Source: Candidatus Roizmanbacteria bacterium CG_4_10_14_0_8_um_filter_39_9
GTDB taxonomy: Bacteria; Patescibacteriota; Microgenomatia; UBA1406; GWC2-37-13
Assembly (NCBI GenBank): GCA_002784505.1
Contig: PFLF01000043.1
Location: 1-40,853, forward strand
Direction: 5' to 3'
Length of the DNA: 40,853 bases
How positions within the stretch are numbered: the stretch's first letter is position 1; every line of letters begins with the position of its first letter. The translations under genes and the position numbers were made by a program. The notes under the pieces are model-generated. The model ran no database searches and was not told the origin of the DNA. It saw nothing but the letters and a program-made list of their open reading frames with translations. Below are positions 9,590-33,648 of this stretch, piece by piece.

Positions 9590-10168
9590 ATGCAGACAGA
9601 TATTGTTTCGGTTGTTGGGCAAATTAAAAATGAAACAAACTTCATTACAAAGGCAAAATTACTCCGTTTTTTGGTTGTTGACAAGGGGATTCGTATAAAA
9701 GATATTAGTAGAACGTTGGGAATGAAGGAGTCCTATGTTTGTCATATTCTTCGGTTGAATAAATTGAACGATCTGGTAGTCGATGGGTATTATTCAAAGC
9801 TTATTTCAATAAGTCACCTCTTTATCATTGCCCGCCTTCATACGACAGAGCAGATTGAAAAAGCCTATGAAATGGTGTTAGGAAACTCATTTACCGTTTC
9901 GCAGACTGAAGAACTTATCCGTGAGATGTTGTATCAAACAAAAACGGTTGGCGAACACATGGAAAAAAAAGAGATAGACCTGCTCACTCACGAAATTGAA
10001 ATCGCACACGATGTAAAGGTAAAAGTTGTGCAGACACGGATCAAGACAAAATGTCTTATTGAGATTTCGGGGAGTCTTCAGGATGCAACTCCTAGGCTCA
10101 GATCAATCTTAAAAATACTAGGAGAAACTCAAAAAGTACCCTCGAAGGATGAGGATGTCACTGCGTAG
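9590..10168 (+). CDS. ParB/Spo0J-like DNA-binding protein lacking the N-terminal ParB/Srx (CTPase) domain
   Basis: HTH 'ISRTLGMKESYVCHILRLNKL' compares with ParB 'GKSRSHVANLLRLLxL'. 'SISHLFIIARL' compares with 'GHARALL'. 'FTVSQTEELI' compares with 'SVRxTEXLV'. The C-terminal segment 'VKVKVVQTRIKTKCLIEISGS...LRSILKIL' looks like the dimerisation region. Confidence 0.6.
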   Translation: MQTDIVSVVGQIKNETNFITKAKLLRFLVVDKGIRIKDISRTLGMKESYVCHILRLNKLNDLVVDGYYSKLISISHLFIIARLHTTEQIEKAYEMVLGNSFTVSQTEELIREMLYQTKTVGEHMEKKEIDLLTHEIEIAHDVKVKVVQTRIKTKCLIEISGSLQDATPRLRSILKILGETQKVPSKDEDVTA

Positions 10169-10738
10169 CTTTACGGGAAATGGATTGTTAATGGTTCCCA
10201 CTTTATTTGCGGGAAAATAGCGGTAAAATACATGGCCTATTACACTTGATTCCGGCACCGGCCCAAATTCACGTGAATCAGAGGACCGAGGGCGGTTATC
10301 TCCCATTACAAATATTTCACCCGGAGGCACCTTGGTTGGTTCTCCATTTTTTGAAAACCCGCCTTCCCAAAGGTTTGTTTTGTCGGAAATATATCCTTCA
10401 TCGAGGACAATTCCATTAACTGAAACTACTGAGTCTTTTACCATTACCTCATCACCGGGAAGTCCGATGATTCGTTTAATATACTCAATATCAGGATTTT
10501 TTGGCGACTTAAACACAACCACATCTCCGCGCTCAAATCCACGCATTTTGTAGGTAATTTTACTGGTGAAAATATAATCACCCGAATTAAAAGTTGGATC
10601 CATCGAAGCCCCTTTAACCTGATTTGGCTGCATAATAAAAAGATAGACGACAATAAAAAGGGAACCGATAAAAACGACCGTTTCCAATATATCCATCACA
10701 AACTCAAACATACCCTTCAAAATCCTCATCATATCCAT
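10118..10738 (-). CDS. lepB: Signal peptidase I (bacterial type, LepB)
   Basis: 'VKGASMDPTF' holds the catalytic Ser, 'YIKRIIGLPGD' the Lys box, and 'GDNRPRSSDSREFGPV' is present. The ATG at 10738 is preferred over the track's TTG at 10774, which would overlap a good promoter for tRNA-Val. Confidence 0.85.
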   Translation of the reverse strand: MDMMRILKGMFEFVMDILETVVFIGSLFIVVYLFIMQPNQVKGASMDPTFNSGDYIFTSKITYKMRGFERGDVVVFKSPKNPDIEYIKRIIGLPGDEVMVKDSVVSVNGIVLDEGYISDKTNLWEGGFSKNGEPTKVPPGEIFVMGDNRPRSSDSREFGPVPESSVIGHVFYRYFPANKVGTINNPFPVKLRSDILILRGYFLSFS

Positions 10739-10756
10739 TGATTGTAATGAACAAGG

Positions 10757-10785
10757 TTGCAAAAAACAAGCCAAATCATTACAAT
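10757..10785 (+). promoter_or_regulatory. Candidate promoter for tRNA-Val and the downstream gene
   Basis: TTGCAA (10757-10762), a 17-nt spacer and TACAAT (10780-10785), about 16 nt upstream of the tRNA 5' end. Confidence 0.5.
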
Positions 10786-10801: not shown

Positions 10802-10874
10802 GGACCCGTGGCTCAGTTGGTAGAGCGCTTCATTCACATTGAAGAGGTCACAGGTTCGAGTCCTGTCGGGTCCA
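10802..10874 (+). tRNA. tRNA-Val (anticodon CAC)
   Basis: The cloverleaf folds by hand. Acceptor GGACCCG/CGGGTCC, D stem GCTC/GAGC, anticodon stem CTTCA/TGAAG with loop TTCACAT, and T arm ACAGG-TTCGAGT-CCTGT. The discriminator is A, and CCA is not encoded. Confidence 0.9.
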
Positions 10875-10898
10875 CAAAGGTTTATTAATTTTCGTCTT

Positions 10899-12899
10899 AT
10901 GAAAAAAGGCTTTAGTTGGTTAGTTGTCTTTTTTGCGGTTCTTGCCGTCACCGGCATTGCGGGTGGAGCATATTATCTTGGAACACGAACAAATGCTCCC
11001 AAGGCGGCATCAACCTCCCACAGTCAATCATCTTTGCAATTCACCTCGTTGTCTTCATCGTCACTTCAACAGACGAAAGAACCTCTTTTCACCGGCTCCG
11101 TGAAAAAGATAACTAAGGATTTAGAGCTTTTTAAAATATCAGAAATTGATAAGGAAAACGGAGTACCCGATTCGATCGTATATTATGAAGCAGGAACGTT
11201 TGTACGAGGAGAGTTTAAAGATTATACAAGGATCCTGGCGATTCGCCCGTCTGAAGGACCAGGTCCCAGTATGCAATTTTTGCTTGCAACGAAAGATTAC
11301 CGTACGTATTTACTCGATGATCCGGGAAGTAAAACTGTCAACTACCCCGAGAGTGATTGGGATAATCCCTTCACCTACCTTGATAGAAGCAAAATTTCAA
11401 AAACGGTATCGCTTGATACCGATCACCCAAAAATAATTGAGGTTGAAAAACCATTTGTGCTGATCAGACAGGATTCGATCCTTCTTGAAAACAAAAAATC
11501 CGGGAATAAAGACAAAAATGGGTATGATGTCTATCTTGAGTCCCCGATAACTGCTTTTGCTAAGTCTGATATTGTTCCCTCAAACCAGACACAGCTAACT
11601 CTTTACATCGGAGGAACTGACTGGGGGAGCGGTGAAGGCTATGGCGATAAAGAAAAAAAAGATCTTGCCATCCGAAAAACATATTTAAGTAAAACTACGT
11701 ACTTGCACGGAGCCGATTCGACGGGGCTTTCATATTCCTATGTCCTTTCAACAAAAAGTGATGTTGACGCTTACTTGGCAAAAGCTGCGACTGCAGAACA
11801 GGAAGTGATTGCGTATAAAAAACAGATCGCTCTGTACAATGAAAAAAAATTATCCGAATATCCGAAGTCTCCCGATTATATAACATTCCCCGGCATGCGT
11901 CTTGACAACTCAACAACAGCAATCCCGGCAGATTTTTACGCAACCTATGACTCGGCATTTCCCGGAGCATGTGGTGGGGGTCAAAGCACTTTTCTTGTTG
12001 ATCTCATCAAAGACTCAGATCTTCAGGCAGTGTCTTCTTCCTCAGATTACCCGCTTTTTATTTTGAAAGACACAAAACATCCTCTGTATGAATTGGCATA
12101 TCGTGTGAAAACGGAACAAGGCGAAGAATCGTTTAAGGGAGTAAATGACGGGAAATCCATTCCGACATTTGAGGCCTACGTTGCAGATCACCCGCTGGTC
12201 TTTTTCAAGGATGCATGGGGGAGGTGGGGTGTAATGGGTGAATATGATTTCAAACTTATGGGTGGATGCGGGAAACCTGTAATTTATCTTTATCCTGAAA
12301 AGGAAACGAATGTTCACCTGTCATTTGCAGCGCCCTTTTCTTTAAACACTCAAATCCCCAGTTACCATGATGGGTGGTTTGTAAATGCAAAACCGAACGG
12401 AACTTTAACCGACCTTCAGTCGAAATATACGGACTGTTCGAAGATTGATGAAACAATATTTGGTTCTGAATATGCAGGAGCCGCATGTAAATCAAACTCC
12501 TATCCATACATCTACTGGTCAGGAAAAAGTGTTGAGAATCAATATCCGAAGGTGGGCGGAGGATGGATGGTTGAAAAAGAAAATCTTGGAGTGTTTATGA
12601 AAGCTAAGTTGAATGAAATGGGGCTGAATGAAAAAGAATCAAACGATATGACTTCCTATTGGGTTCCAAAGATGAGTGAAAAAAACGCCCCCTATTATCG
12701 AATAAGCTTTTTGCAAACTCAGGCAATGAATAAATTTATCCCGATGGATGTTAATCCAAAGCCGGACTCAGTAATCCGTGTATTTCTTGACTTTAAAGCG
12801 CTTGAGGTCAAGCCTTCAGTGATTCCCGTACCTCAGACGTTGCAAAGGTTTGTCCGCAATGGATTTACGTTGGTTGAATGGGGCGGGTTGATTGAGTAA
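10899..12899 (+). CDS. Hypothetical large exported or membrane-anchored protein
   Basis: The ATG at 10899 lies downstream of the tRNA; the track's start at 10839 lies inside the tRNA. There is an N-terminal TM 'FSWLVVFFAVLAVTGIAGGAYYL' and a Ser-rich linker. The C-terminal region 'GGCGKPVIYLYPEKETNVHLSF...' belongs to no family I can name. Confidence 0.6.
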   Translation: MKKGFSWLVVFFAVLAVTGIAGGAYYLGTRTNAPKAASTSHSQSSLQFTSLSSSSLQQTKEPLFTGSVKKITKDLELFKISEIDKENGVPDSIVYYEAGTFVRGEFKDYTRILAIRPSEGPGPSMQFLLATKDYRTYLLDDPGSKTVNYPESDWDNPFTYLDRSKISKTVSLDTDHPKIIEVEKPFVLIRQDSILLENKKSGNKDKNGYDVYLESPITAFAKSDIVPSNQTQLTLYIGGTDWGSGEGYGDKEKKDLAIRKTYLSKTTYLHGADSTGLSYSYVLSTKSDVDAYLAKAATAEQEVIAYKKQIALYNEKKLSEYPKSPDYITFPGMRLDNSTTAIPADFYATYDSAFPGACGGGQSTFLVDLIKDSDLQAVSSSSDYPLFILKDTKHPLYELAYRVKTEQGEESFKGVNDGKSIPTFEAYVADHPLVFFKDAWGRWGVMGEYDFKLMGGCGKPVIYLYPEKETNVHLSFAAPFSLNTQIPSYHDGWFVNAKPNGTLTDLQSKYTDCSKIDETIFGSEYAGAACKSNSYPYIYWSGKSVENQYPKVGGGWMVEKENLGVFMKAKLNEMGLNEKESNDMTSYWVPKMSEKNAPYYRISFLQTQAMNKFIPMDVNPKPDSVIRVFLDFKALEVKPSVIPVPQTLQRFVRNGFTLVEWGGLIE

Positions 12900-12903
12900 G
12901 AGT

Positions 12904-12942
12904 TTAACACTTCCGAAATGATTAACAGTTCGGAAGTGTTAA
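12904..12942. repeat. 39-nt REP-like palindromic element (copy L), 3' flank of the RAYT gene
   Basis: TTAACACTTCCGAA-ATGATTAACAG-TTCGGAAGTGTTAA forms a perfect 14-bp stem. It lies 4 nt after the stop of the 10899-12899 gene and encodes the last residues and stop of the transposase. Confidence 0.8.
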
Positions 12943-13572
12943 AGATTCAAGATAATTTTTGTACAATTCATTTTTTCCCTTGCAAAATTTACTGTTTATT
13001 ATAGTTTCTGTTTCTATTTTATATGGATTATTTTTACCCATATACGCATTAATGGATGAAAAGCGATATGAATATATTCCATTAATCTTTTTGATGAGGC
13101 CGGAGGTATATGGATTTACATGAATATAGCGTGATACAAAGAGTAATTGTTCTTCTGATCGTATTCTTTTTGCTTTAAATTGGGTTAGAAAAACGGGGCC
13201 CTTTCGATCATGAATAGTATTGTACAGTCGAGTAATAGATATGAGCGTTTTGATCATTGTATCTTCAATGCCGTTTGGATGTAGTTGTCGAACTAATAAA
13301 TGATAATGATTTGGCATAAGACAGTACGCAAGAATTTGAATGCGGAATGACCCTTCATCAACAACTTTTTTCATGATTTGGTCGGCTATTCCATACCTGC
13401 AACTTTTCAGATACGAATACCTCATCGTGCTCTTTAGCGATCGGTAATATGTTAGAGTATTAATGAATCTGGTTGAGATAGTGTCGTTTGAAAATATTCG
13501 TATAGATTCAACGGTTTTGTCATAAACATGATATATGTTTCCATCACTGAATGGAATAAATCTCTTTGGCAT
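12922..13572 (-). CDS. IS200-like / REP-associated HUH tyrosine transposase (RAYT-like, Y1 family)
   Basis: The HUH motif is 'CLMPNHYHLLV' and the catalytic Tyr motif is 'SRYIHVNPYTSGL' (YIHxNP). The gene is bracketed by two copies of the same 39-nt palindromic element. Confidence 0.8.
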   Translation of the reverse strand: MPKRFIPFSDGNIYHVYDKTVESIRIFSNDTISTRFINTLTYYRSLKSTMRYSYLKSCRYGIADQIMKKVVDEGSFRIQILAYCLMPNHYHLLVRQLHPNGIEDTMIKTLISITRLYNTIHDRKGPVFLTQFKAKRIRSEEQLLFVSRYIHVNPYTSGLIKKINGIYSYRFSSINAYMGKNNPYKIETETIINSKFCKGKNELYKNYLESLTLPNC

Positions 13573-13756: not shown

Positions 13757-14968
13757 TTATTGTTGAGATTGTTGTTGAAGAGACCTTATCCGAAGTAACA
13801 TGATGGTGACTATTATCAGAGCGTCGGTAAGAATAAAATACCTGCCGAATACAGACATTGTATTTGGAAATAGCAGATATGAATAGGTAAGGCATTTGTT
13901 CATCAGTCTAAAGATGAGAAACGATAAAGCAGCAATCAAAGCTCCTCCTAATTTTGGAGCCTTTTTACTCATATCTTTTACAAAGCGGAAATAGTACAAA
14001 GCTGCAAAAAGTCCCTCACCCAGAAGTATCTGCCACCAGATAAGATTACATGTGATTGATGCGCCTTCTACTTGACCGGTAGATGATGAGGATGAGGAAG
14101 AACCGCCTGATAGAGTAGGCGTGGTTTCTGTTGAAACTCCCTCAACCTGTCCTCCTGTGAAAGGAGCAAAAAATCGGGAGGTGGCTCCTAAAACACTTCC
14201 AGAGCTTGATGAGGATGATGATGAAGAAGTACTACAGCTTGAGGCATTGATAGTCACACTCTTTGACGGATACCCATTCTCAGGCTCCGCCTTTACCGTA
14301 TCGTCTCCGGTATGGGTATACCCGACCTGCGCTTTTCCATTTGAACCGGTTACCGCTTCCTTAACTTCTCCTTTATAAGTAAATTTGACATTGATGCCGG
14401 ACTGAACGACCCCATCATATTTTAACTCCATAATGGCATCAAAGTCCGAGTTAGTACAAGAAGTGGAAAGAGACGACGTCTTGCCGGTCAACGGAGATAT
14501 AAAGCTCATTGTTAGATCAAATTGGGTAGAAGTATTTTGATACTCATTTCCAGCGTCAGTGTCCATGGTTAATGCAAATGCAAATGTCTCACTTGACCCA
14601 TTACCCAAACTGGATAATAACTCAGTTTCTCCATTGGTATAAAATGCGCTCAATAAGCCGGTCCATGCTGTTGTACTGTCAGATCTGGTAATGACAAGAT
14701 TCATCACTTGATCCAGACCACCTGTTGTTGTTTCGCCAGATGTATCTGCGCCGATTTTTTGGCTTGAACCACTCGTATTGGTAATTTGAATTGTCTTTGT
14801 TAACGTTTTACCCGGATACCATACTTCGGATGAGGAGAAAAAATGGGTGATTGTTGAAGGAGTACAACCTGAGTCGGTACAGCTTATATTATCATCTGCG
14901 GCAAAGGCAGTTTGAGTTAGAAACAGTACCCCTAGTCCGATAAGCACTGTTAAAAAAATCCTTTTCAT
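13757..14968 (-). CDS. Secreted TasA/camelysin-fold domain protein with an Ig-like/CarboxypepD_reg-like domain, Ser-rich linker and C-terminal multi-TM anchor
   Basis: The signal peptide is '...LTQTAFA/ADD'. 'VWYPGKTLTKTIQITNTSG', 'LDQVMNLVI' and 'DAGNEYQNTSTQFDLTMSF' resemble the TasA/Peptidase_M73 pattern. There are poly-Ser tracts, and hydrophobic helices follow 'ITCNLIWWQILLG'. The start lies 1 nt after the upstream stop. Confidence 0.6.
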   Translation of the reverse strand: MKRIFLTVLIGLGVLFLTQTAFAADDNISCTDSGCTPSTITHFFSSSEVWYPGKTLTKTIQITNTSGSSQKIGADTSGETTTGGLDQVMNLVITRSDSTTAWTGLLSAFYTNGETELLSSLGNGSSETFAFALTMDTDAGNEYQNTSTQFDLTMSFISPLTGKTSSLSTSCTNSDFDAIMELKYDGVVQSGINVKFTYKGEVKEAVTGSNGKAQVGYTHTGDDTVKAEPENGYPSKSVTINASSCSTSSSSSSSSSGSVLGATSRFFAPFTGGQVEGVSTETTPTLSGGSSSSSSSTGQVEGASITCNLIWWQILLGEGLFAALYYFRFVKDMSKKAPKLGGALIAALSFLIFRLMNKCLTYSYLLFPNTMSVFGRYFILTDALIIVTIMLLRIRSLQQQSQQ

Positions 14969-14969
14969 A

Positions 14970-17900
14970 TTATAAGTTTTCCTCCAAAGTTATTTTCACT
15001 CCATCTTTGTCCGTCAAAATAATAATCAATTTAACATTTTTTACATCAGTATCGTAGGTGCAGACTTCACCCGAACAGGTGGCTAGGTCAAGATCAGTCT
15101 TTTCATACTTATCAAGCGAAGAAATATCAACATCCGATCCTACCAGTCCTTTTGCGATGCTGAATGCGTCATAACTTAATTCATATGAGAGTTTGTCATA
15201 GTCGGCGATATTTTGTACGGAGAATGATACCGTTTTTCTATCATCTGCCAAGGTAAGAGTTGCCTCAGGCGTTGCACTAACGGTGGGAGTTGGCCTTACA
15301 GAAGTTGTCAGGTGGGCCAATGGTTCGTTTTCCGAACGGTTTTCAGTCCGGGGAGTTCCCCTTACGTCAGATCCAACGGTGCCCGTGGTAAAAAACTCTG
15401 TGCGCGATGCACTGTCAATACATGAGTACCAGTTTAAAGGATCCATTCCGATTCCCGGCACCGATGTCCGCTCCATCGAATAATATTTAAGATCGATTGC
15501 ATCATATAAACCTTCACCCTCTCCAGTTGAAAGGTCGTAAGTGTAGTCCCATGCCGTATCAAGCACATTGCTTAATGGATCAGTCAGCTGTAGTTGTAAA
15601 TGTCCGGCTGCAAGAGCAACCGACGTGGTCACCAGATCTGCGGTTACGGATGATTTTAATTGACTGCCCGCAGTTCCAGGAGCATAATTTGTGATAAGGA
15701 AATAGCTGTGAGGAGCTACGGAGGAAGAAGGAAGGGTAACCATATCTGCATAGGTTGTACCATTATATTTCTGGATTTTAAAGCCGGATAAATCTATAGT
15801 CCTATCAGTCATATTGCGAAGTTCGATCCATTCGTCGGCAGTTGAAACACTTGTTCCCATCCACATGAGTTCGTTGATAACAATATCGCCAGCTGTCACG
15901 CTTGTTAAAGGTGCAAGCGCGGTTGTCGTCCCTGTAGTTGTATCAATTCCTGACCAGTTCGGCGCTTCATCTGCCGCACGGATTGCAAAGTAATAGGCGG
16001 TTGAAGGATTAAGTCCTAGGATTTCTACTGACTCATTCAAGCCCGCTTCTTGCGGAACCGGTATCTTGCCTGCAGATGTTGCGGAATTAAAATTGTCTTC
16101 GGTTATGATAGGGGAGGTAGAATACCGGATATCGTACTTCGCCGCTCGTCCTGAAGAACCGTTGTTACCAGGGGAGGTCCAAGTAAGGGTTGCCGTGTTT
16201 ATGCGAATCTCAGCAACTCCAAGATCATTTATTGTCGCAGGAGCTTGATTATCAGTGATGACCTGGACACGGTAGATGGAGCTATTGTTTCCCGCATTAT
16301 CAACTGCGTAGTATTCGACCCAATGATCCCCATGTTCTGTAACTTGGAATGTCGAGGAAGTTTGCTGCCACGATTCCCCCCCAATGCGATATTCATAATG
16401 GTTTATACCGGAAAGCGCATCACTTCCGACGAGAGTATATGTTGCATGTCCTGGGGCAGATACAAAATATGTGGTTATCGCATCTACGTATGCCCAAGAT
16501 TGAAGGGTATTATCAGTAGTATTACCCGCATAAATTGCAAGATTAAGTTTGTCACTATTTGCATAATCACTCAGGTCATAAGAAAACTGCTGCCAACCGG
16601 TATTTCGCGCAACTCCAAAATCTGCCGTACTGAGAACCGATGGATCCGTCTTGAATATTTCCTGGCCGTTTAGCCGGATAAAAAACCCGGGATCGTCAAA
16701 TGCATTATCATAGGAGGCATAGTTATAATGAAGCGACAGACCCTTAGCTCCTCCTGATACTGATTGCATGAGTCTATTTTCCCAAACTTTATTTCCTTCA
16801 TCTGAAGGATAGGCATAATTACCGATACGCGCCATAGACGATGAACCATCATATGGATTAATCACTAAGTCTGTCTCTGGAAATGGTTGGGTAATGATAT
16901 CCCCCGTTGTAATTGCCACATCTCCAGCTGTTGTCCACCCGGTTAATCCGCTTTCCAAACCTCCGTTTGTAAATTTCTCTTCAACGGCTTTTGTATATGA
17001 GCCCTCAATTGAAAGGGAGAGGGATGATGGGGCTACTTGATCAAGAGTGAGTCCGCAGCTATTAGATATAACGCTCTCATTGCCAGCTTTATCAACCGCT
17101 ATGATTGTATATGAATATGGATTATTACCAGGCGTCATGTTTCCAAAATATTGAGTAGTTGGATGATAAACCTTGGCATGTTTGGTATTGGATTTAGTAC
17201 CAAACCAATAATAGTCTATATTTGGATCTGTACTCGGATACCACTCGATTGTTATATGGGTATCATTGGTAAAACCGCCGCAGCCGACCTCAGTCCATGT
17301 AGATGAATTATGGCCTTTATAAATTGTTTTTACTTGCGGTTTTAAAGGCTTGGTGCTGTCAAGGGTCAGTTTCCAGACTTCACTCCACGCACTTCTGTTG
17401 CCGACTGTGTCTATTGCCTGTACCCGCCACCAAAATATGCCATCAGGTGCGCCGCTTGCATTTTTAACTATCCGCTCTTCACCACCTATTGTTTGTTTAT
17501 TTGCGATGGTATAGGTTGCGGTATAACGCACTTGGCCGGCAGGGCAGATTTGACCTGCATACAATTGTGGATCAACTCCGCAACTTTCATAATAATACGT
17601 AACAGGATTTGACCCGTGTTCATCTACTACATATTGCCAAGTTTGTTGTAACCCAGCGCTATTCATGATGGTATTATTTGCCGGGGAGCGAAGTAAAGGT
17701 ACAGGAGGCGGGACAAAGTCTTTAGCTGAAATGCTTATACCGGATGCATCAATGTTTTTTAACCATAAAGCATTAATTGTCTTGTATGAAAAAATACTCA
17801 GAGGTAAGAAAAGAAAAATAAGAATCCCAACAACAGTGTGCGGCGTTTTTATTGGTTTATTTTCTTCACTGCGTTTTTTGCGCATCTCTTCGAGTATGCC

Positions 17901-18416
17901 TACGACTAGTTGAAAAGCAAATATAAAAATAAGGACAATGGAGGGAATGCCGATAATCAATAAAAATCCAAGAGGTTTTTTTACCTCAGTCAGAGCATAA
18001 CCTAAATAGGGGATAGACGTTATATACTTTCCTTTTATCGCACCCGGCACTACTTCCCACACATCCTTTGATGAATTTGCATCTCCCTTAGTAATGAAAA
18101 AAGGCACAGCCCTATTACCCAATACAGTTGGCTTAATATTGACCATACGGTGGATGATCACCTGACTTTTATTACCTGGGTTTTCAAAAGCAATAATATC
18201 ACCTTTTTTTAAATCAGAGTAAGGTGCATTCTGAACAAATGCAACTGATCCAATTTGGATGTTAGGCTTCATTGATCCGGTTATGACGACAAACGGTTGG
18301 ATCTTATATCTGGTTGGAAGTATGGGGGCTGCAACAAGAAGACACAGTGCTAGGATAACTATGCACACGATCCATTCGGCTATATTAATTATTTTCTTAA
18401 ATATTGTCATACACAA
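14970..18416 (-). CDS. SipW/archaeal-type signal peptidase I fused to a large FN3- and lamin-tail-domain ectodomain
   Basis: The N-terminal ~180 aa contain a TM, 'VITGSMKPNIQIGS' (Ser), 'VIIHRMV' (His), 'FITKGDANSSKD' and 'IPYLGY', then a second TM. A basic loop, a third TM and about 930 aa follow. That region includes an FN3 ('LTWTSPGNNG...YDIRYS...YYFAIRA') and an LTD ('IVINELMWMG...DEWIELRN..IDLSGFKI'). Confidence 0.8.
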   Translation of the reverse strand: MCMTIFKKIINIAEWIVCIVILALCLLVAAPILPTRYKIQPFVVITGSMKPNIQIGSVAFVQNAPYSDLKKGDIIAFENPGNKSQVIIHRMVNIKPTVLGNRAVPFFITKGDANSSKDVWEVVPGAIKGKYITSIPYLGYALTEVKKPLGFLLIIGIPSIVLIFIFAFQLVVGILEEMRKKRSEENKPIKTPHTVVGILIFLFLPLSIFSYKTINALWLKNIDASGISISAKDFVPPPVPLLRSPANNTIMNSAGLQQTWQYVVDEHGSNPVTYYYESCGVDPQLYAGQICPAGQVRYTATYTIANKQTIGGEERIVKNASGAPDGIFWWRVQAIDTVGNRSAWSEVWKLTLDSTKPLKPQVKTIYKGHNSSTWTEVGCGGFTNDTHITIEWYPSTDPNIDYYWFGTKSNTKHAKVYHPTTQYFGNMTPGNNPYSYTIIAVDKAGNESVISNSCGLTLDQVAPSSLSLSIEGSYTKAVEEKFTNGGLESGLTGWTTAGDVAITTGDIITQPFPETDLVINPYDGSSSMARIGNYAYPSDEGNKVWENRLMQSVSGGAKGLSLHYNYASYDNAFDDPGFFIRLNGQEIFKTDPSVLSTADFGVARNTGWQQFSYDLSDYANSDKLNLAIYAGNTTDNTLQSWAYVDAITTYFVSAPGHATYTLVGSDALSGINHYEYRIGGESWQQTSSTFQVTEHGDHWVEYYAVDNAGNNSSIYRVQVITDNQAPATINDLGVAEIRINTATLTWTSPGNNGSSGRAAKYDIRYSTSPIITEDNFNSATSAGKIPVPQEAGLNESVEILGLNPSTAYYFAIRAADEAPNWSGIDTTTGTTTALAPLTSVTAGDIVINELMWMGTSVSTADEWIELRNMTDRTIDLSGFKIQKYNGTTYADMVTLPSSSVAPHSYFLITNYAPGTAGSQLKSSVTADLVTTSVALAAGHLQLQLTDPLSNVLDTAWDYTYDLSTGEGEGLYDAIDLKYYSMERTSVPGIGMDPLNWYSCIDSASRTEFFTTGTVGSDVRGTPRTENRSENEPLAHLTTSVRPTPTVSATPEATLTLADDRKTVSFSVQNIADYDKLSYELSYDAFSIAKGLVGSDVDISSLDKYEKTDLDLATCSGEVCTYDTDVKNVKLIIILTDKDGVKITLEENL

Positions 18417-18519: not shown

Positions 18520-19086
18520 TTACATTTGTGTTCCAGTGAGCAACCAAGTTGAGTACGTGCTTGTGCCAGCCAAAGCTTGTGGAAAGCTTGCGTCTGTGTT
18601 CAAACACATGTACATCGTCTTATCTGCTCCTTTTGCGATTGTTACATTAGTTGGGGTAGATACGGCTATCCAAGTGCCAATCTTCTCATTTGCACTGCTA
18701 GGTGCCCATCCTGATTCGCCAAACTTAACATACGTGGTATTAGCCATTTCAGTTGAATTCCACCATGTTGTATTACTCATACTTGTGAGCTGTGCATCAA
18801 TAGCCAAAGTAATATCTGCAGAACTTGAGTTACGCAGATAGACCGGGATATAAGAAGTACAGGTAGTATTGTAATTTGGCATTATGTTTGAAAACGTTGT
18901 TATGGCGCTAAAATTTGCCGTTGACCCATATGATGTGCCGTCAGTTGATACTAATAGTCCGATAGTACCCGCATCTATTCTAATGTTTTGAGCCGTGGCA
19001 GTCGTTGTCCAAAGAGCATATGCTCCTGATCCTAATGCCGCCAATACCACTACTAATGCGATTGTTGATACGATTATCTTTTTCAT
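18520..19086 (-). CDS. TasA/camelysin-like small secreted protein with a SipW-cognate-type signal peptide (candidate fibre major subunit)
   Basis: 'MKKIIVSTIALVVVLAALGSGAYALWTTTATAQNIRIDAGTIGL' parallels TasA 'GGGTWAAFND..FASGTLDL'. The C-terminus 'AGTSTYSTWLLTGTQ' resembles the family's terminal motif. The SD GAGGGGAGGTGAAAA is very strong. Confidence 0.7.
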   Translation of the reverse strand: MKKIIVSTIALVVVLAALGSGAYALWTTTATAQNIRIDAGTIGLLVSTDGTSYGSTANFSAITTFSNIMPNYNTTCTSYIPVYLRNSSSADITLAIDAQLTSMSNTTWWNSTEMANTTYVKFGESGWAPSSANEKIGTWIAVSTPTNVTIAKGADKTMYMCLNTDASFPQALAGTSTYSTWLLTGTQM

Positions 19087-19321: not shown

Positions 19322-21970
19322 TTACATATTTCTCACATCTTTTTGAATCTTTTGAATTGATTTTATATATATTTCAGCTTGTGTATATTTTTTTTGAGTC
19401 ATCGCATCTTCTGCAAGTTGTGTCCGCTTTTCAATTTCAATGAGTTGAAGAGCATTTTTTTGTACTGCTTTTCCGCGGCCTTTCATTTGTAACAAATAAT
19501 TTTGTAGAGGAGAAATGAGTTTCTTTGAGACGGCGATACTTTTGCTTAGCCTTGATGGGACAATCCCAAAATTATAGTTTTCTAATACTTTTCCATATAC
19601 TTCTTCCAGTTTTTCTATTGCATAAAATATTTTTGCCTTCTCGTTTATATTTGATTTTTGATATGCGAGAAACAGTTGCTGATGGGTAAGTAGGAGTGAG
19701 GATTTAAGTCTGCCCTTATTTTGGACTGAGTAAAATTGTTTTGCAAATTTGATATTGCTTATTGATTTTGCTATATCGGTTTTTTTTAGTGTTTTATTTA
19801 TATCCGTCAAATATAGAGCAAGCTCATCAAATAGAGCAGGCGTTGCAGATAGGGGAAAGGAAGGCATTTGAGAGTTGGATTCGATTTGGTATGTGTCAAT
19901 TTGATTAGTCGGAGGATCCTGGGTGATCTCTCCTTCAATCCGATTCCACATATCTTTATTTGACCCTAACTGCCCAATAAAAATGGTATATCTCCCTTTT
20001 TCCTGTCCGATTACTCTCAGTAGGTAATTACCGGACTGAGCATTTTCGATAAATAATTGTCCCTCATTTTCATCATATGTTTTGTTGTCATGAACGACCT
20101 GAAGTTTTGCAGGAGACAACATAAGAAAAATAAGGGATGGACTGATTTGAGTTTTATTACTCTCAGCGACGTCAGGTTCTGCGAAAGATATATTTGCAGC
20201 TTGCAAAATTGCTTTAATTCCCCGAACGGTGTACATTAGTTCACCATGATTGAGATTCGTAAAGATTGGGTTGTTGCCGATCGCTGCAGAACTATTTATG
20301 ACTAAATTATCACCATTCGTTGTTAATCTTTCGGTCGGTCTTCCATCAACATATATATCCAACAGTCGATCCATTACAGATCTATTTGACAATTTGTAAC
20401 CACTCAGCGTGTCAATTGAGTCACCCGCTATGGTTTGCAATGAAGCAAGTGTTTGAGAATTGGGAATTTGATACAAAAGGGGTAATGAATTTTGCATGAA
20501 AAGTGAGGAGTTGGCAATAATGGTGCCATCTCTCATTAAGTAATTTTGAAGCGGCAAAAGATTTTGAGCAATTGGGAAGTAACTATTTATTATTTGTTTA
20601 TCTGAATCAATTCCGTTTCGGTAAAGTTGCAGTATCATTTTCTGGCCCAACCATTCAAATGTGTCGCCTGTTTCGATTTCCCCTGCCTCTACCGGCTTAT
20701 AGGCAAAAGCCGTTCCTCCATGCGGAGCACCGACGGTTAAAACTTTATTAATTTGTGAGGGTCCGTATTTTTGAAGATATATGCGGCTGATAAACCCTCC
20801 CAGAGAGTGGCCGATGAGAATCGGTTTCTGAGTATATTGCTTGTTTTGGATATAAGAATATAATTCATCTGCCGTTTTTTCAGCCGACTGTCTCCAGTCA
20901 TAGTTAAAGAAACGATAGTCAGTATTTTTCACATATCCAAGATTATTTAATGTCTGTTCAATTCCCTTATACTCGTTTACCATCGGATTCATGCTCCATT
21001 GAGATTGGGCGACTTGAGCATTATGAAAGAGCGCCTCCTTATTCCAAGAGGCAAACATACCGGGGATAAGAATAAGGGGATGCTTTGGAAGTGGCGTAGG
21101 AGTTGGAGTGGGGAGAGGATTTAAGGATATTGCAAGATTCAATTTCCAGTCGCCAGAGGGAGTTCCGTAATAAAGCATTAGCTCATTATCTTTTTGAAAG
21201 ACAAAAGGAAAGTATGAAGAGGACATAATCGTGGTACGGTTTATCCACTGGGAAGTACAGGAAAGGGGAGCATGAGTTTCAACATATTCAATTCCCCGCG
21301 GCGAGTGGAAAAATAAATAGTATGAAACCCCATCTTTTATGAAGGACTTCGGAACCGAATCTTGATCGAGAAAATAATTGCCACATTTACTAAAATTGAC
21401 TCCATCAGAAGAAGTGGCTAAACCCGTTTTCCAGTTACCGTTTAATGCGGTATAAAACAGAAAATACGTTTTATTTTCAAAATATATGGTGGGTGATGAA
21501 ACCCCATCTCTCTCCCAACTTAGCTCCGGAAGCAAAATCGTCCGCAATGTTGAAGCATCAAAATCAACGCCGTTTGATGACTCGATTTTCATTATTCTTG
21601 TGTGCTCACCCGAGGGAGTTGTTGCGAAGTACAACAGATATGTTTCACCTACTCTATACATTGAAGGATCATGAATATCCTGACCATTTAGGAAATCAAA
21701 TAATTTAGCTCCTTGCCAATGGATGCCATCACTCGATGTTGCATAGGCGATTCGAAGTCCCGCCCCTACCGAGGTGTACCACATTTTATATTCTCCATTT
21801 TCAAAAATGATTGATGATTGCATTACTCCTGTTTCATTCCAACCTGAGTAGTTTGATACAACGCTCAAAGGGTTGGAAGAATCGGGAACAAACGATTCAA
21901 ATGCATGAATAAACTGCGTATTTAAATGAAAAATAGTAAGAAGGATTAAAATACTGAATATTTTTTTCAT
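19322..21970 (-). CDS. Secreted fusion protein: beta-propeller (GH43/GH130-like fold) + LCAT/PGAP1-like alpha/beta hydrolase (lipase/acyltransferase) + helical C-terminal region
   Basis: There is a signal peptide. Repeated 'W..tg......F.....Y.m.Y' and 'ATSSDG..W/F' blades are followed by a 'PTPTPTPLP' linker. Then come 'LILIPGMFASWN', 'FNYDWRQS' (the LCAT-family YDWR motif) and 'ILIGHSLGGFISR' (GxSxG). Confidence 0.65.
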   Translation of the reverse strand: MKKIFSILILLTIFHLNTQFIHAFESFVPDSSNPLSVVSNYSGWNETGVMQSSIIFENGEYKMWYTSVGAGLRIAYATSSDGIHWQGAKLFDFLNGQDIHDPSMYRVGETYLLYFATTPSGEHTRIMKIESSNGVDFDASTLRTILLPELSWERDGVSSPTIYFENKTYFLFYTALNGNWKTGLATSSDGVNFSKCGNYFLDQDSVPKSFIKDGVSYYLFFHSPRGIEYVETHAPLSCTSQWINRTTIMSSSYFPFVFQKDNELMLYYGTPSGDWKLNLAISLNPLPTPTPTPLPKHPLILIPGMFASWNKEALFHNAQVAQSQWSMNPMVNEYKGIEQTLNNLGYVKNTDYRFFNYDWRQSAEKTADELYSYIQNKQYTQKPILIGHSLGGFISRIYLQKYGPSQINKVLTVGAPHGGTAFAYKPVEAGEIETGDTFEWLGQKMILQLYRNGIDSDKQIINSYFPIAQNLLPLQNYLMRDGTIIANSSLFMQNSLPLLYQIPNSQTLASLQTIAGDSIDTLSGYKLSNRSVMDRLLDIYVDGRPTERLTTNGDNLVINSSAAIGNNPIFTNLNHGELMYTVRGIKAILQAANISFAEPDVAESNKTQISPSLIFLMLSPAKLQVVHDNKTYDENEGQLFIENAQSGNYLLRVIGQEKGRYTIFIGQLGSNKDMWNRIEGEITQDPPTNQIDTYQIESNSQMPSFPLSATPALFDELALYLTDINKTLKKTDIAKSISNIKFAKQFYSVQNKGRLKSSLLLTHQQLFLAYQKSNINEKAKIFYAIEKLEEVYGKVLENYNFGIVPSRLSKSIAVSKKLISPLQNYLLQMKGRGKAVQKNALQLIEIEKRTQLAEDAMTQKKYTQAEIYIKSIQKIQKDVRNM

Positions 21971-22028: not shown

Positions 22029-22985
22029 CTATTTTTTCTTGATATAAAGCTCCAGGATAGACCCATGGTAGTGTAGGTTTAGCAGGCGATAAAAAAGCGG
22101 GGCAATACATCTGTCAAATAGTAGATATTTTATTAGGCGCAAGGAAGAATAACTGACTTTTTTAGCCTCATCGGGCCTACCCGAATGCCCCAATTCTAAC
22201 CGCGTAGGTTGGAATTGGACTGGTACAACGGTTCGATAGGCATGTGAGTTTCCTGATTTAAATATGGCTTTAATTATCCCCATAAGATGTTCCGGGTAGC
22301 TATATGTTGACACTTTGTCTATTTGACATCTCGGCGGAGTAATAGTCTTAATTGTTTTTTTAGAAAAAATCCACAAATGATCAGGTGGAGTGAGGAAGGT
22401 ATAATTGTTTTGCTCAGCCTTATATAAATGACTGTCCAAATTGGGTGTCTCAATATATAAAATACCATCTGGGGACAATAATTTACATGCGTCCTTCATC
22501 AATTTTTTTGGATTTGAAACATGTTCGATCACATGAATGAATGTAATAAAATCGTATTTTATATTTTGATGACTCTTTGCATATATTTCAAAACTTGTTT
22601 TATACAATTTTTTGATTGATTTATAAATGGGAACATTATAAAAAGAGCCTGAAGGTTCAACTGCAGAAACGTTAAGGCCAATATCAAGGGCTTCATTGGC
22701 AAAATATCCGTATCCCGACCCAACATCCAACAAGCTAGTCCCTGATGGATTGATACTTTTTAGATTTAGGAGAATTTTTTTTGCACGCGCCCTGATAGGA
22801 GTTTCATTCGTTTTTCCTGCAAAATAATCAAAACTACTTTTATAATACTTATCAATCTGCGTTTTTGATGGTTGAGGATATAAAAAAAGAAGATTACATG
22901 GAACACATCGGTAATATTTATATTGATCAACTTGATTTGCAATTACCGAACTGCAACGACACAGTGGACAAGATGTTTTGGGCAT
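22029..22985 (-). CDS. Class I SAM-dependent methyltransferase with an N-terminal Zn-ribbon
   Basis: The ribbon is 'CPLCRCS...YYRCVPCNLLF'. SAM motif I is 'LLDVGSGYGYFA', and 'FDFITFIHVIEHV' is present. Confidence 0.8.
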   Translation of the reverse strand: MPKTSCPLCRCSSVIANQVDQYKYYRCVPCNLLFLYPQPSKTQIDKYYKSSFDYFAGKTNETPIRARAKKILLNLKSINPSGTSLLDVGSGYGYFANEALDIGLNVSAVEPSGSFYNVPIYKSIKKLYKTSFEIYAKSHQNIKYDFITFIHVIEHVSNPKKLMKDACKLLSPDGILYIETPNLDSHLYKAEQNNYTFLTPPDHLWIFSKKTIKTITPPRCQIDKVSTYSYPEHLMGIIKAIFKSGNSHAYRTVVPVQFQPTRLELGHSGRPDEAKKVSYSSLRLIKYLLFDRCIAPLFYRLLNLHYHGSILELYIKKK

Positions 22986-23029
22986 GTGAAATTATGAGGC
23001 GCATAGTTGATGATAGGCAACCGCTTCTG

Positions 23030-23038
23030 TGCTACAAT
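23030..23038 (+). promoter_or_regulatory. Extended -10 promoter element (TGcTACAAT)
   Basis: TGTGCTACAAT is identical to the 11-mer upstream of the ParB-like gene. It lies in the divergent intergenic region upstream of the + strand methyltransferase genes. Confidence 0.35.
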
Positions 23039-23142
23039 TAGGAGAGTTCGGAGGTTTGGAATAATGTAATTATTGCGAATAACCTTTTCTATGAAATGCG
23101 TTCTCTATTGAGAATCATAAGTGGTTCTTTACCCCCCCATCA

Positions 23143-23388
23143 ATGAAAACTTTGCTTCTAAAAACAGGATATACCATTGAAATACTATCAACTCATGAAG
23201 ATTTTATTGACTTCAAAAAAAATCTTGATGGGAACTGGGGGAGAATTGGAAGCAGTGTTATCCGCAAGATGCTGAAGAGCATATATTTGGTTTGTTTTAC
23301 TCCGTTATACTTCTTCTTTAGAGGTATACTGTGGAATCAGGGCAAGGAAGACTTATTATTTGTTATTGCGCGCAAAATGAATGAATAA
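23143..23388 (+). pseudogene. Stand-alone C-terminal fragment of a class I methyltransferase (remnant of a tandem paralogue; may still be translated)
   Basis: The 81-aa ORF is colinear with the C-terminus of the next gene. 'LLLKTGYTIEILST' matches 'LFALLTSNGFRILNIS', and 'GKEDLLFVIARKM' matches 'GSGEAVLVIAIKL'. No SAM-binding part lies upstream, where an in-frame stop sits at 23092. The ORF overlaps the next start (ATGAATGAATAA). Confidence 0.4.
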
Positions 23389-24211
23389 ATTATTCTCTTC
23401 AAACTGTGTTTGCTCAGTTGTAAAACAACAATTTATTCCGACTATAATATATAGAAACGAAACAGTTTTTAAAAACTATAATGGTCTTGTAATCGCAAAG
23501 TGTCAACATTGCGGGATGCTTAAAACATTCTCAAGTAACAATAAGATAAAAGTTACGCCCGAAATAAGTGAAGTTGAGCACTATGAGGAAAACCGTCAGG
23601 ACTTTCAAAATAGTTTTGAAGAGCTAGTAAACAGGGTCAAGGTGTATATAAAATCTGGATCAGTTCTTGAAGTTGGGGCATCATCGGGGAATTTGATGCG
23701 CGTGTTTCAAGTTCAAGGATTTGACGTCTCTGGCATTGAGCCAAACAGACCGGCATTTAATGTATTGACAAAACAATTTGGCCAACGCGCTTATTACGGA
23801 TATCTAAAAGATTTCATTATCAAAAACAAAGTACAATTTGACCTAGTTATTTACAATCATGTGTTGGAGCATGTTGAAAATCCAAATAATGAGCTTAATC
23901 TTATAAAACAGGTGTTGAAAAAAGGCGGCCTGTTAATTGTGGGAGTACCGAACTGTGACAACATTGTTTTTAAAGTTCGAAGAAAATTCTGGGAATCACT
24001 ATTACCCAATCAACACATCTGGCACTTTTCAACAAAACATCTTTTTGCCTTGCTTACATCGAATGGTTTCAGAATTCTTAACATCAGCTACAACAATCAT
24101 AAACGCAAAGACTATCCCTTAATCAAGAAAATATATTTTTGGTTTCTTGTGGGATTTAATCGTCTGAAAGGCTCAGGAGAGGCGGTACTTGTTATAGCTA
24201 TAAAACTATAG
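23381..24211 (+). CDS. Class I SAM-dependent methyltransferase with an N-terminal Cys4 ribbon
   Basis: The ribbon is 'CVCS...CQHCGMLKT'. Motif I is 'VLEVGASSGNLM', and 'FDLVIYNHVLEHV' is present. Confidence 0.8.
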   Translation: MNKLFSSNCVCSVVKQQFIPTIIYRNETVFKNYNGLVIAKCQHCGMLKTFSSNNKIKVTPEISEVEHYEENRQDFQNSFEELVNRVKVYIKSGSVLEVGASSGNLMRVFQVQGFDVSGIEPNRPAFNVLTKQFGQRAYYGYLKDFIIKNKVQFDLVIYNHVLEHVENPNNELNLIKQVLKKGGLLIVGVPNCDNIVFKVRRKFWESLLPNQHIWHFSTKHLFALLTSNGFRILNISYNNHKRKDYPLIKKIYFWFLVGFNRLKGSGEAVLVIAIKL

Positions 24212-24217
24212 ATTTAT

Positions 24218-24256
24218 TTATCAGTTCGGAACTGATAAACATCTCGGAGGTGATAA
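24218..24256. repeat. 39-nt REP-like element (copy 3) between convergent genes
   Basis: TTATCAGTTCGGAA-CTGATAAACAT-CTCGGAGGTGATAA has the same 39-nt architecture as 12904 and 13681. Its first 23 nt with one flanking T form a perfect palindrome (TTTATCAG TTCGGAA CTGATAAA), so it can act as a bidirectional terminator. Confidence 0.75.
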
Positions 24257-24262
24257 GAAAAT

Positions 24263-25579
24263 TCAATAGTAGCGTGTGATGATAGTCCAAATTAATGATG
24301 TCAGTGCGAAAAAGCCTAGGGTAATCACCGCTGCACGTTTGATATGTTTATTACACTTTGCTTGTACGCAGAAGTACAAAGTATAAGGAATCAATATGAG
24401 GTAATATCTTCCTTGAGTGCCATCAATTACCGACGATCCAACTGTTTTCCAGCCAAGATAGAAGATCGTTTGAATAAGCATATACGTTAAAATCGGAGTA
24501 GAAAAAAGAACAATGAGTTTGGTTGTTGGGAGCAAATCACTTTTCTTAAGTTTAATTGTATAAATCAAATAACACGCAGCTCCGATCCATATAAAATACA
24601 TAAATGGATTCATCGAGTAATCCAGCCAGCCAAAAATGCCTATAGCTCCCTGAACATGGAAATTTATGTTACTCAGAAATGAGGTGACAAATATTGCTGC
24701 AAAGTGTAAAGGATCACGAATGATATATGCAATTTGTTTTAAAGGATTAACGCCAATCGGATTGTCACGGTAGTAATATGAGGATATAAAAAAGGGGAGT
24801 TTGATAACGAAGTAGGGGATAAGGACTGACATGAAAAGCCGCAGTTTATTTTTTGAAGGAATAAGAAAAAGTAATAAGAAGAAAGCCTCATATGAAAGCT
24901 TGGTGAGAAGAAATAATAAAAGGCTTCCTCCAAACAACAGTACATGTTTCGCTTTATTTGAACTAGAATGCGATAGATTTATAAAGGTGCAAAAGAGCGC
25001 GGCTCCTGCCACATAGTGCATTCCGTCATATCCATAACCTGAGATCTGGTGAATCAACATGGGGAGGGAAAAGGTAAAAAGGAGAATGTCGTCATAGGGT
25101 TTTCTGGTTTTGCGGTAGATAAAAATCATCATGAAAAATGAAAATAGAAACATAAAAAATCTACCCGCGAAAAAGCCAACCGTACCATTCAAGCTTAATA
25201 TTCGTGCAATGAGCAAGCCCAAGGCATGAGGAATGTATGGAATTGCGGGAAGAATGAACATTCCCTTCGGGTCAAGATATAATATTTTATGGTCGCCCGA
25301 GGAAGCAAATAAGGGCTTTTGATAAAACGATGCGTCAAATTTTATGTTTGCATGGTAGGGAATTGCGTTTAGCTTTTTGTCAAAAATGATATCGGTGTAC
25401 ATTTTTTCAATTGGGAGCTTTTTTCCGTCATTTAGTAAAAAAACATACCCTTTACTGAGAAGAATTGCCCGTTTGAAGTGTCCGTGTTCATCGGGCTTTT
25501 GAAGGGGAGGGACCAAAAAAGTAAATGCGAGACCCAGAATGAAAATATAGGTAAAAACGAGTTTGGCGTAAAATTTCAT
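24263..25579 (-). CDS. Polytopic membrane protein, DUF2142-like (putative extracytoplasmic glycosyltransferase)
   Basis: The protein has more than 10 TM helices. The first-loop motif 'PPLQKPDEHGHFKRA' matches the PDExxH signature of DUF2142-type proteins. Confidence 0.6.
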   Translation of the reverse strand: MKFYAKLVFTYIFILGLAFTFLVPPLQKPDEHGHFKRAILLSKGYVFLLNDGKKLPIEKMYTDIIFDKKLNAIPYHANIKFDASFYQKPLFASSGDHKILYLDPKGMFILPAIPYIPHALGLLIARILSLNGTVGFFAGRFFMFLFSFFMMIFIYRKTRKPYDDILLFTFSLPMLIHQISGYGYDGMHYVAGAALFCTFINLSHSSSNKAKHVLLFGGSLLLFLLTKLSYEAFFLLLFLIPSKNKLRLFMSVLIPYFVIKLPFFISSYYYRDNPIGVNPLKQIAYIIRDPLHFAAIFVTSFLSNINFHVQGAIGIFGWLDYSMNPFMYFIWIGAACYLIYTIKLKKSDLLPTTKLIVLFSTPILTYMLIQTIFYLGWKTVGSSVIDGTQGRYYLILIPYTLYFCVQAKCNKHIKRAAVITLGFFALTSLIWTIITRYY

Positions 25580-25619
25580 TTTGGCCCATTATAGCAGATA
25601 TAATTATTATAATGATTAT

Positions 25620-28634: not shown

Positions 28635-28662
28635 ATTTTATATAATTAGAGCACACAAATCA

Positions 28663-33635: not shown

Positions 33636-33648
33636 ACAATCATAATCT

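Follow-up and report, generated by a model that had tools for sequence, protein, structure and literature searches.

A SipW-like signal peptidase joined in frame to its putative substrate through a predicted internal signal peptide in a Candidatus Roizmanbacteria contig

The tapA-sipW-tasA genes of Bacillus subtilis encode a dedicated signal peptidase of the endoplasmic reticulum (ER) type, with a Ser-His active site, beside its substrates, which carry an aromatic residue at position P2' (PMC10269814). They combine a subunit of the TasA superfamily with an accessory protein whose N-terminus, after cleavage, is donor-strand-like (PMC9674648, PMC10151520). In Pyrobaculum calidifontis, AbpA, a TasA-like subunit assembled by donor-strand exchange, is followed by the larger beta-rich accessory protein AbpB, which was proposed to supply the first strand as an initiator and to act as a FimH-like adhesin (PMC9245690). 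Here we describe a locus resembling both systems, in which a SipW-type peptidase and a very large accessory protein are encoded by the same open reading frame (ORF). It lies in contig PFLF01000043.1 of Candidatus Roizmanbacteria bacterium CG_4_10_14_0_8_um_filter_39_9 (assembly GCA_002784505.1), a bacterium of the Candidate Phyla Radiation (CPR); the whole stretch of 40,853 nucleotides (nt) that was analysed is referred to below as the window.

In B. subtilis, the stop codon of the accessory gene overlaps the start codon of sipW (PMC10151520), and the CPR loci related to the window in which peptidase and accessory protein are separate likewise show overlapping genes. The window differs in its gene order, which is subunit, sipW and accessory gene, with the last two forming one ORF; in its accessory part of about 930 amino acids (aa), made of immunoglobulin (Ig)-like, FN3 and lamin tail domains (LTD) and non-homologous to the TapA of about 250 aa; in a third protein, with a TasA-like domain and C-terminal transmembrane segments (TMs); and in its CPR host. 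AbpA and AbpB, on the other hand, are encoded without a nearby dedicated signal peptidase (PMC9245690), whereas the peptidase of the window is dedicated and covalently fused to the AbpB-like partner. A bifunctional SipW with a functional C-terminal tail past its second TM has also been reported (Terra et al. 2012, cited in PMC9674648); that tail is of about 20 residues, cytoplasmic and regulatory, while in the window the peptidase is followed by a predicted signal peptide and a 930-aa exported protein. Occurrence of PF12389 homologues in Patescibacteria (PMC9245690) was the sole literature link found, and literature searches on SipW fusions, on SipW in CPR and on bacterial polyproteins with internal signal peptides yielded no description of this architecture.

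The gene arrangement of the window also invites comparison with viral polyproteins. In the glycoprotein precursors of flaviviruses and bunyaviruses, an internal signal starts translocation, and the cut made by signal peptidase I yields two proteins from one ORF. There the peptidase is the host's, while in the window it is the upstream half of the same polypeptide, which would give an enzyme:substrate ratio of 1:1 in cis. One viral polyprotein with an internal signal peptide is mentioned in PMC6784171.

We interpret the ORF as a natural enzyme-substrate polyprotein that arose by in-frame fusion of a sipW-like gene with the substrate gene immediately downstream, and assign to this reading a probability of roughly 0.6. 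Its features are as follows.

14970..18416, minus strand: whole fused ORF, 1148 aa from a TTG start; SipW-type peptidase, predicted internal signal peptide and ectodomain
17892..18416, minus strand: archaeal/ER-type signal peptidase I module, residues 1-175, with TM1 at about 13-33 and TM2 at about 149-175
18273-18275, 18150-18152 and 18081-18083, minus strand: conserved catalytic residues S48, H89 and D112, respectively
17838..17891, minus strand: basic cytoplasmic loop EEMRKKRSEENKPIKTPH, residues 176-193, equivalent of the n-region of the putative internal signal peptide
17784..17837, minus strand: third hydrophobic segment ('third TM') TVVGILIFLFLPLSIFSY, residues 194-211, equivalent of the h-region of the putative internal SipW-type signal peptide
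17769..17783, minus strand: c-region KTINA, residues 212-216; predicted SipW cut after A216, between nt 17769 and 17768
17715..17768, minus strand: predicted new N-terminus LWLKNIDASGISISAKDF, residues 217-234, alternating and beta-strand-like; candidate donor strand
17697..17714, minus strand: Pro-rich linker VPPPVP, residues 235-240
15927..17696, minus strand: array of Ig-like/FN3-like beta domains, residues 241-830
16260-16448, minus strand: OmpL47-type beta-barrel, residues 657-719
15966-16226, minus strand: fn3 domain, residues 731-817 (E 1.8e-7)
15564..15896, minus strand: Lamin tail domain, residues 841-951 (PF00932, 47.7 bits vs a cutoff of 34.3, E 2.3e-12)
14973..15296, minus strand: conserved C-terminal beta-sandwich module of about 108 aa, residues 1041-1148

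The ORF is uninterrupted over its 1148 codons. The public gene call (P0001) starts at the ATG at 18410, two codons after the TTG, and is therefore of 1146 aa. The initial annotation, a reading of the sequence alone, had recognized an uninterrupted ORF, and not an annotation merge, which begins with a complete SipW/archaeal-type peptidase and continues through a basic loop and a third hydrophobic segment into a large ectodomain with FN3 and lamin-tail domains. All of this is borne out by the open frame, by the recurrence of the fusion in independent contigs and by the domain matches.

The peptidase module matched TIGR02228, the archaeal-type signal peptidase I (S26B) model, over residues 13-165 (92.7 bits vs a cutoff of 51.85), and the fused protein also matched PF10502, Peptidase_S26 (33.2 vs 22.9). 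S48 (in GSMKP), H89 (in IIHR) and D112 (in KGDAN) are each at least 90% conserved in a 61-sequence alignment, and correspond to the Ser-His(-Asp) signature of the ER type rather than to the Ser-Lys dyad of LepB (PMC10269814). The hydrophobic segments 13-33 and 149-175 provide the layout of an ER/archaeal-type peptidase, i.e. TM, catalytic domain, TM. Because the score against the Bacillus SipW equivalog NF046067 falls below the cutoff (77.3 bits vs 190), the peptidase, judged by its profile matches, is SipW-like in kind and not a SipW orthologue by NCBI's criterion.

By hydropathy, exactly three hydrophobic segments are present in the fused protein, at about 13-33, 149-175 and 194-211, and past residue 230 nothing exceeds a Kyte-Doolittle value of 1.13. 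The strings quoted in the initial annotation for the basic loop and the third TM were located at residues 176-190 (EEMRKKRSEENKPIK) and 195-211 (VVGILIFLFLPLSIFSY), with the junction between peptidase and third segment at nt ~17780-17900, and its topology logic was right. Since the catalytic domain of a signal peptidase must lie outside, TM2 would return to the cytoplasm; the loop 176-193 would then be cytoplasmic, and the third segment would take the rest of the protein outside. An AlphaFold2 (AF2) model of the full-length protein, from the 61-sequence alignment, had a mean predicted local distance difference test (pLDDT) score of 82.9, with a confident peptidase module (pLDDT ~90; helices 2-32 and 148-183) and a confident string of beta domains; a Foldseek search with the full-length model retrieved only generic Ig/FN3 arrays. 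The helix 194-208 was modelled at low pLDDT, and residues 184-232 were flexible, with pLDDT below 50, as expected in such a model for a linker and a strand needing a partner.

The evidence that the third segment is more than a TM comes from its relatives. In four split orthologues (P0003, P0007, P0009 and P0014), i.e. ectodomain proteins that are encoded apart from the peptidase, the N-terminal signal peptides align without gaps to the loop, the third segment and the following 20 residues of the window protein, with a conserved D[WF]xPP motif as the anchor of the alignment. At its N-terminus, P0014 scores above the cutoff of TIGR04088, 'SipW-dependent-type signal peptide' (24.6 bits vs 19), and the same model was the most frequent NCBIfam match (12/114 at E < 0.01) among the internal segments extracted from 114 fused representatives. 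A seed profile made from only 11 free-standing N-terminal signal peptides ranked 52 of these 114 segments higher than any of 684 decoys, made by shuffling or reversal as a simple control. One iteration raised the window segment to 29.5 bits (E 2.5e-8), while no decoy exceeded 9 bits, and in the final iterated profile 111 of the 114 segments lay above every decoy. These comparisons demonstrate, at the level of primary structure, the homology of the third segment and its flank to bona fide SipW-type signal peptides.

The residues around the expected site point the same way. Among 110 fused proteins, Ala occupies P1 in 104, with Ser in four and Gly in two, P3 is always one of A/T/I/V/S/L/G, and P2' is F, Y or W in 102; beyond the site there follows an alternating pattern of S/T and hydrophobic residues, ...SG(I/V)(S/T)(I/F)S. 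The window segment has the n-h-c organisation of a signal peptide, and its site, KTINA216/L217W218, has I214 at P3 and A216 at P1, both among the small or aliphatic residues seen there, and the aromatic W218 at P2'. An aromatic P2' is the reason why LepB handles TasA poorly and why TasA needs SipW (PMC10269814). A segment that only held the protein in the membrane would not retain a site for signal peptidase so strictly, and we consider it quite probable, on these alignments and profiles, that the third segment is a cleaved internal SipW-type signal peptide of the ectodomain.

The comparison of fused and split genes, which the initial annotation had proposed, found both states. Ectodomain relatives without a peptidase are P0003 (61% identity), P0007, P0009 and P0014, and at all four loci a separate S26/S24 gene of 179-197 aa stands directly upstream and overlaps the ectodomain gene by 8-20 nt (in locus L001 the overlap is ATGCATAG). 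Because these loci keep a separate, overlapping upstream sipW, the window ORF is, by comparison, sipW and the next gene downstream joined in frame. A neighbour-joining tree, built from 635 alignment columns common to all, has two clades (bootstrap support 98% and 99%) in each of which fused and split members occur together; this implies at least two independent events of fusion or fission among these close relatives. Gain or loss of a single base within the 8-nt overlap would suffice to switch between the two states, and their interconversion is easiest to understand if both layouts give the same two mature products.

A full-length search retrieved at least 13 divergent homologues with the same fused architecture on independent contigs. 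When the peptidase module alone (residues 1-200) was used in a HMMER search of 1.84 billion cluster representatives (50% identity), 17,484 relatives were found at E <= 1e-3; 119 of the best 150 were longer than 250 aa and 28 longer than 700 aa, these 150 being the nearest relatives of the window peptidase, hence a biased sample, with some lengths cut by contig ends. The closest genome match was from a Candidatus Roizmanbacteria (54% identity, on a 1.2-Mb contig), and further relatives came from Beckwith-, Levy-, Gottesman-, Woese-, Moran- and Saccharibacteria. Thus, of the initial view that the architecture is undescribed, the part concerning the literature stands, but the fusion is not rare: fused proteins dominate the closest relatives of the window peptidase in public metagenome data. 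They are labelled merely 'signal peptidase I' by NCBI (e.g. P0019 and P0020). It should be noted that metagenome-assembled genome records with a CPR-type cassette (L011, L012, L013, L016, L017 and others) are titled 'uncultured Gammaproteobacteria' or 'Pseudomonadales', labels that look wrong; of these, L012 and the split locus L001 lie on one and the same contig.

This recurrence also bears on whether a sequencing or assembly indel merged overlapping sipW and ectodomain genes in the window contig. With an overlap of only 8-20 nt in the split relatives, a single-base indel would indeed fuse the genes, and the exact protein of the window is known from one contig only. However, the fusion is found in many independent and divergent contigs; P0004 occurs with identical sequence on at least 24 contigs, some of them longer than 1 Mb; the junction peptide of P0005, which comes from another sample, is nearly that of the window; and the linker of the fusion forms a proper basic loop and is not sequence read out of frame. 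An artefact is therefore rejected as extremely improbable.

The fused gene belongs to a cassette that is kept in every related locus, consisting of a precursor of 186-244 aa, then sipW, fused or split, with the ectodomain, and then a protein of 333-425 aa. The two neighbours in the window are the following.

18520..19086, minus strand: 188-aa precursor gene; SipW-type signal GAYA24/L25W26 and divergent TasA/camelysin-superfamily domain
13757..14968, minus strand: 403-aa protein gene, starting 1 nt past the stop codon of the fusion; N-terminal TasA-like domain and Ser-rich linker

The TasA relation of the 188-aa precursor comes from profile comparison. PF12389 (Peptidase_M73, the TasA/camelysin family) was matched by 6 of 11 positional equivalents of the protein, and hhalign of the 188-aa subfamily against the remaining equivalents, PF12389-positive members included, gave 98.9% probability (E 2.2e-17) over 164 columns, i.e. 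full length. In the PDB, the precursor family profile matched the TasA structures 5of1 and 8aur best, although only marginally (E 0.013-0.017). These results uphold the link to the 188-aa precursor and to fibre biology suggested in the initial annotation, and make the protein a candidate for the major fibre subunit. The strand predicted at the start of the window ectodomain resembles the mature N-terminus of this protein.

The 403-aa protein has an ordinary signal peptide (AFA/ADD) with a non-aromatic P2', an N-terminal domain that hhalign relates to the TasA-like precursor family (97.9%, E 3.7e-13), and three C-terminal hydrophobic segments. The position of its gene is conserved across all related loci, and it is a probable cell or membrane anchor. 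Two further observations concern this family: at residues ~280-330 of the protein and its homologues, a G(E/Q)V(K/E)G motif is repeated just before a conserved membrane segment C.C(I/L)WWQILL, and the N-domain has an invariant Cys, C30, with a second Cys nearby (CT.SGC) in most homologues.

The TapA equivalog TIGR04087 had no match in the window and only weak N-terminal matches in its relatives (P0014, 13.2 bits vs 80, and 3/114), and the resemblance of the ectodomain to TapA is functional and positional, not one of family membership. The idea that the fusion partners of SipW are themselves TasA-like subunits was rejected, as only the signal and strand region matches. A scan for operon signals found promoters near chance level and terminators mildly above it (9 vs 4.7 expected), with no boundary assignable.

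In B. subtilis, the N-terminus made by SipW is the donor strand of TasA, and N-terminal residues of TapA mimic that strand and nucleate fibres (PMC9674648, PMC10151520). By analogy, the fused protein could operate in the following way. It would insert with the N-terminal side of TM1 inside, which puts the catalytic domain outside and lets TM2 lead back into the cytoplasm, where residues 176-193 form the basic loop; segment 194-211 would then act as an internal signal peptide and export the ectodomain of ~930 aa. The SipW module, acting either on its own polypeptide or on that of a neighbour, would cut after A216 (KTINA/LW), leaving the three-TM peptidase in the membrane and freeing an ectodomain whose new N-terminus would be LWLKNIDASGISISAKDF-VPPPVP (predicted neo-N-terminal peptide on cutting A216-L217, LWLKNIDASGISISAK). 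Up to this point, i.e. three-TM insertion, export, cleavage by the SipW module and release, the sequence of events is what we infer from the features above. The exposed strand would next plug into the TasA-like 188-aa subunit encoded upstream, as for TapA/TasA and AbpB/AbpA, so that the Ig/FN3/LTD protein would start a donor-strand-exchange fibre or sit at its tip as an adhesin, and the 403-aa protein would probably anchor the fibre to the cell. This full model of a fibre initiator or tip is put forward tentatively, by analogy with those systems, at somewhat less than even odds.

Several points weigh against reading the ORF as an enzyme-substrate polyprotein of this kind. TIGR04088 was not matched by the window's own internal segment (residues 172-240); this is a short model, trained mainly on AYFSD...GNTF-type sequences. 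Against the uniterated seed profile the window segment scored only 5.2 bits, and its assignment thus rests on alignment continuity and one profile iteration. The full-length AF2 model leaves the predicted site undocked in the active site, which has no bearing on whether cleavage occurs in cis or in trans. Cleavage at A216-L217 is a prediction from sequence, and the polyprotein reading supplies no selective advantage of fusion over translational coupling. With regard to the subunit, the 188-aa protein has no direct match to PF12389, its AF2 model (pLDDT 50, from a 3-sequence alignment) is too poor to bear out a jelly-roll fold, and a Foldseek search with this model returned no match at E <= 0.001.

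Some of these points would suit a permanent tether, as envisaged in the initial annotation, in which the third segment is an uncleaved signal-anchor and peptidase and ectodomain remain one membrane protein that keeps SipW activity where the fibre is assembled or fixes the base of the fibre. It would agree with a single continuous ORF with three hydrophobic segments, with the presence of a TasA-like subunit in the operon, with a cleavage that is predicted rather than observed, and with the position of the site outside the active site in the AF2 model. An anchor, however, needs neither the Ala at P1 (95% of the fused proteins), nor the small P3 (all), nor the aromatic P2' (93%); in the split orthologues the equivalent segment stands at the N-terminus as a genuine signal peptide; tight clades show interconversion of the fused and split states; and a dedicated anchor candidate, the 403-aa protein with its C-terminal TMs, is encoded next door. 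We therefore regard permanent tethering as unlikely, and the tether as probably transient, the segment being a likely cleavable SipW-type signal peptide.

If the polyprotein is cleaved as proposed, the ectodomain need not be part of a fibre. It could act by itself as an adhesin, secreted or on the surface, or bind nucleic acids or a host; it would then need SipW for its aromatic P2', and its N-terminal strand would have no donor role. The ectodomain is indeed without a TasA-like domain, its Ig/FN3/LTD folds are generic, and the donor-strand role is argued from analogy alone. Nevertheless, every locus examined strictly retains the cassette, with its TasA-superfamily precursor and its membrane protein that carries a TasA-like domain; a conserved beta-strand-like pattern stands directly after the site and is followed by the Pro-rich linker; and the resemblance of this strand to the mature N-terminus of the 188-aa protein points in the same direction. 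In P0016 and P0017, moreover, the position after the site is occupied by what looks, by eye only, like a TasA-like N-terminal domain; the N-terminus of P0016 has a weak, sub-cutoff match to the SipW-dependent matrix-protein model (E 0.01) and that of P0017 none. On balance, a non-fibre role appears quite unlikely.

A bolder version of the fibre model can also be formulated, in which the fusion, far from being a neutral equivalent of translational coupling, is a peptidase-coupled assembly device. The cut at A216-L217 in cis, made on the SipW module, would hand the donor strand over to an incoming TasA-like subunit, or an uncleaved fraction would serve as a membrane-tethered nucleus; SipW would thus be the platform of a pilus without chaperone or usher, tipped by a giant Ig/FN3/LTD adhesin for attachment of a CPR episymbiont to its host. 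We mention it as speculation with a rather small chance of being correct.

The C-terminal module of the fused protein (residues 1041-1148) deserves separate mention. It was modelled with a pLDDT of ~95, has the pattern ...SY.L.YD...G..G...LGTCS.G.C.Y...V.N..L.V.L, and is common to 41 of 118 other fused representatives irrespective of their middle domains, as well as to split orthologues; 34 of the 46 domain hits lie at the very end of the protein. No Pfam match was obtained, and hhalign against the TasA-like families was negative, so that a role as strand acceptor was dropped; the module could be a domain for sorting, anchoring or interaction.

A second signal peptidase gene is present in the window.

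10118..10774, minus strand: canonical P-type (LepB-like) S26 signal peptidase (PF10502, 167 bits, E 4.4e-49)

This is likely to be the housekeeping enzyme. It is found 4 kb from the SipW-type fusion and adjoins a ParB-HTH gene, a layout shared by the Roizmanbacteria locus L004. This implies separate tasks for the two peptidases, one for housekeeping and one dedicated.

The window is chromosomal and encodes FtsA, FtsZ, FtsW, ParB and a class I aminoacyl-tRNA synthetase (PF00133, probably IleRS), and a PHROGs scan was negative, giving no sign of phage origin. Directly upstream of the cassette (19322-21970, minus strand) is the gene for an 882-aa secreted protein with an unusual combination of domains, namely a GH43/GH130-like beta-propeller (~40-220), an LCAT/PGAP1-like alpha/beta-hydrolase, i.e. 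a lipase (~300-430), and a long, unassigned C-terminal half. At this position, locus L004 (3942-5202) has a sortase gene and the gene for a 1117-aa protein, neither of which is in the window. Just downstream of the cassette (12922-13572, minus strand), an ORF for an IS200-like Y1 transposase, at 23.2 bits against a Pfam threshold of 23, might mark a mobile or recombination boundary. The listed ORF of 686 aa at 10839-12899 (plus strand) begins inside a tRNA-Val gene (10802-10875, plus strand); its real start is probably the downstream MKKGFSW..., and its product has no Pfam match and looks secreted. Finally, 22029-34818 is a large cluster for cell-surface glycans, with two methyltransferases, DUF2142, GT2, a YfhO-like protein, GT4s, a Wzx-type flippase and a Wzy-like ligase. 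In L001 and L006, too, the cassette has glycosyltransferase genes beside it, and the cluster may be linked to glycosylation of the Ser/Thr/Asn-rich fibre proteins.

If the proposed reading is true, a signal peptidase I and its own substrate in one polypeptide would constitute a self-contained bacterial polyprotein that uses an internal signal peptide. It would also provide a natural 1:1 enzyme-substrate pair for the study of the specificity of ER-type (SipW) peptidases, including the rule of the aromatic P2'. The annotation 'signal peptidase I' on proteins of 700-1200 aa hides a large class of CPR surface proteins. Type IV pili are currently regarded as the main means by which CPR bacteria attach to hosts and surfaces; the locus described here suggests that TasA-type donor-strand fibres tipped with large adhesins occur in Microgenomates and in other CPR lineages.

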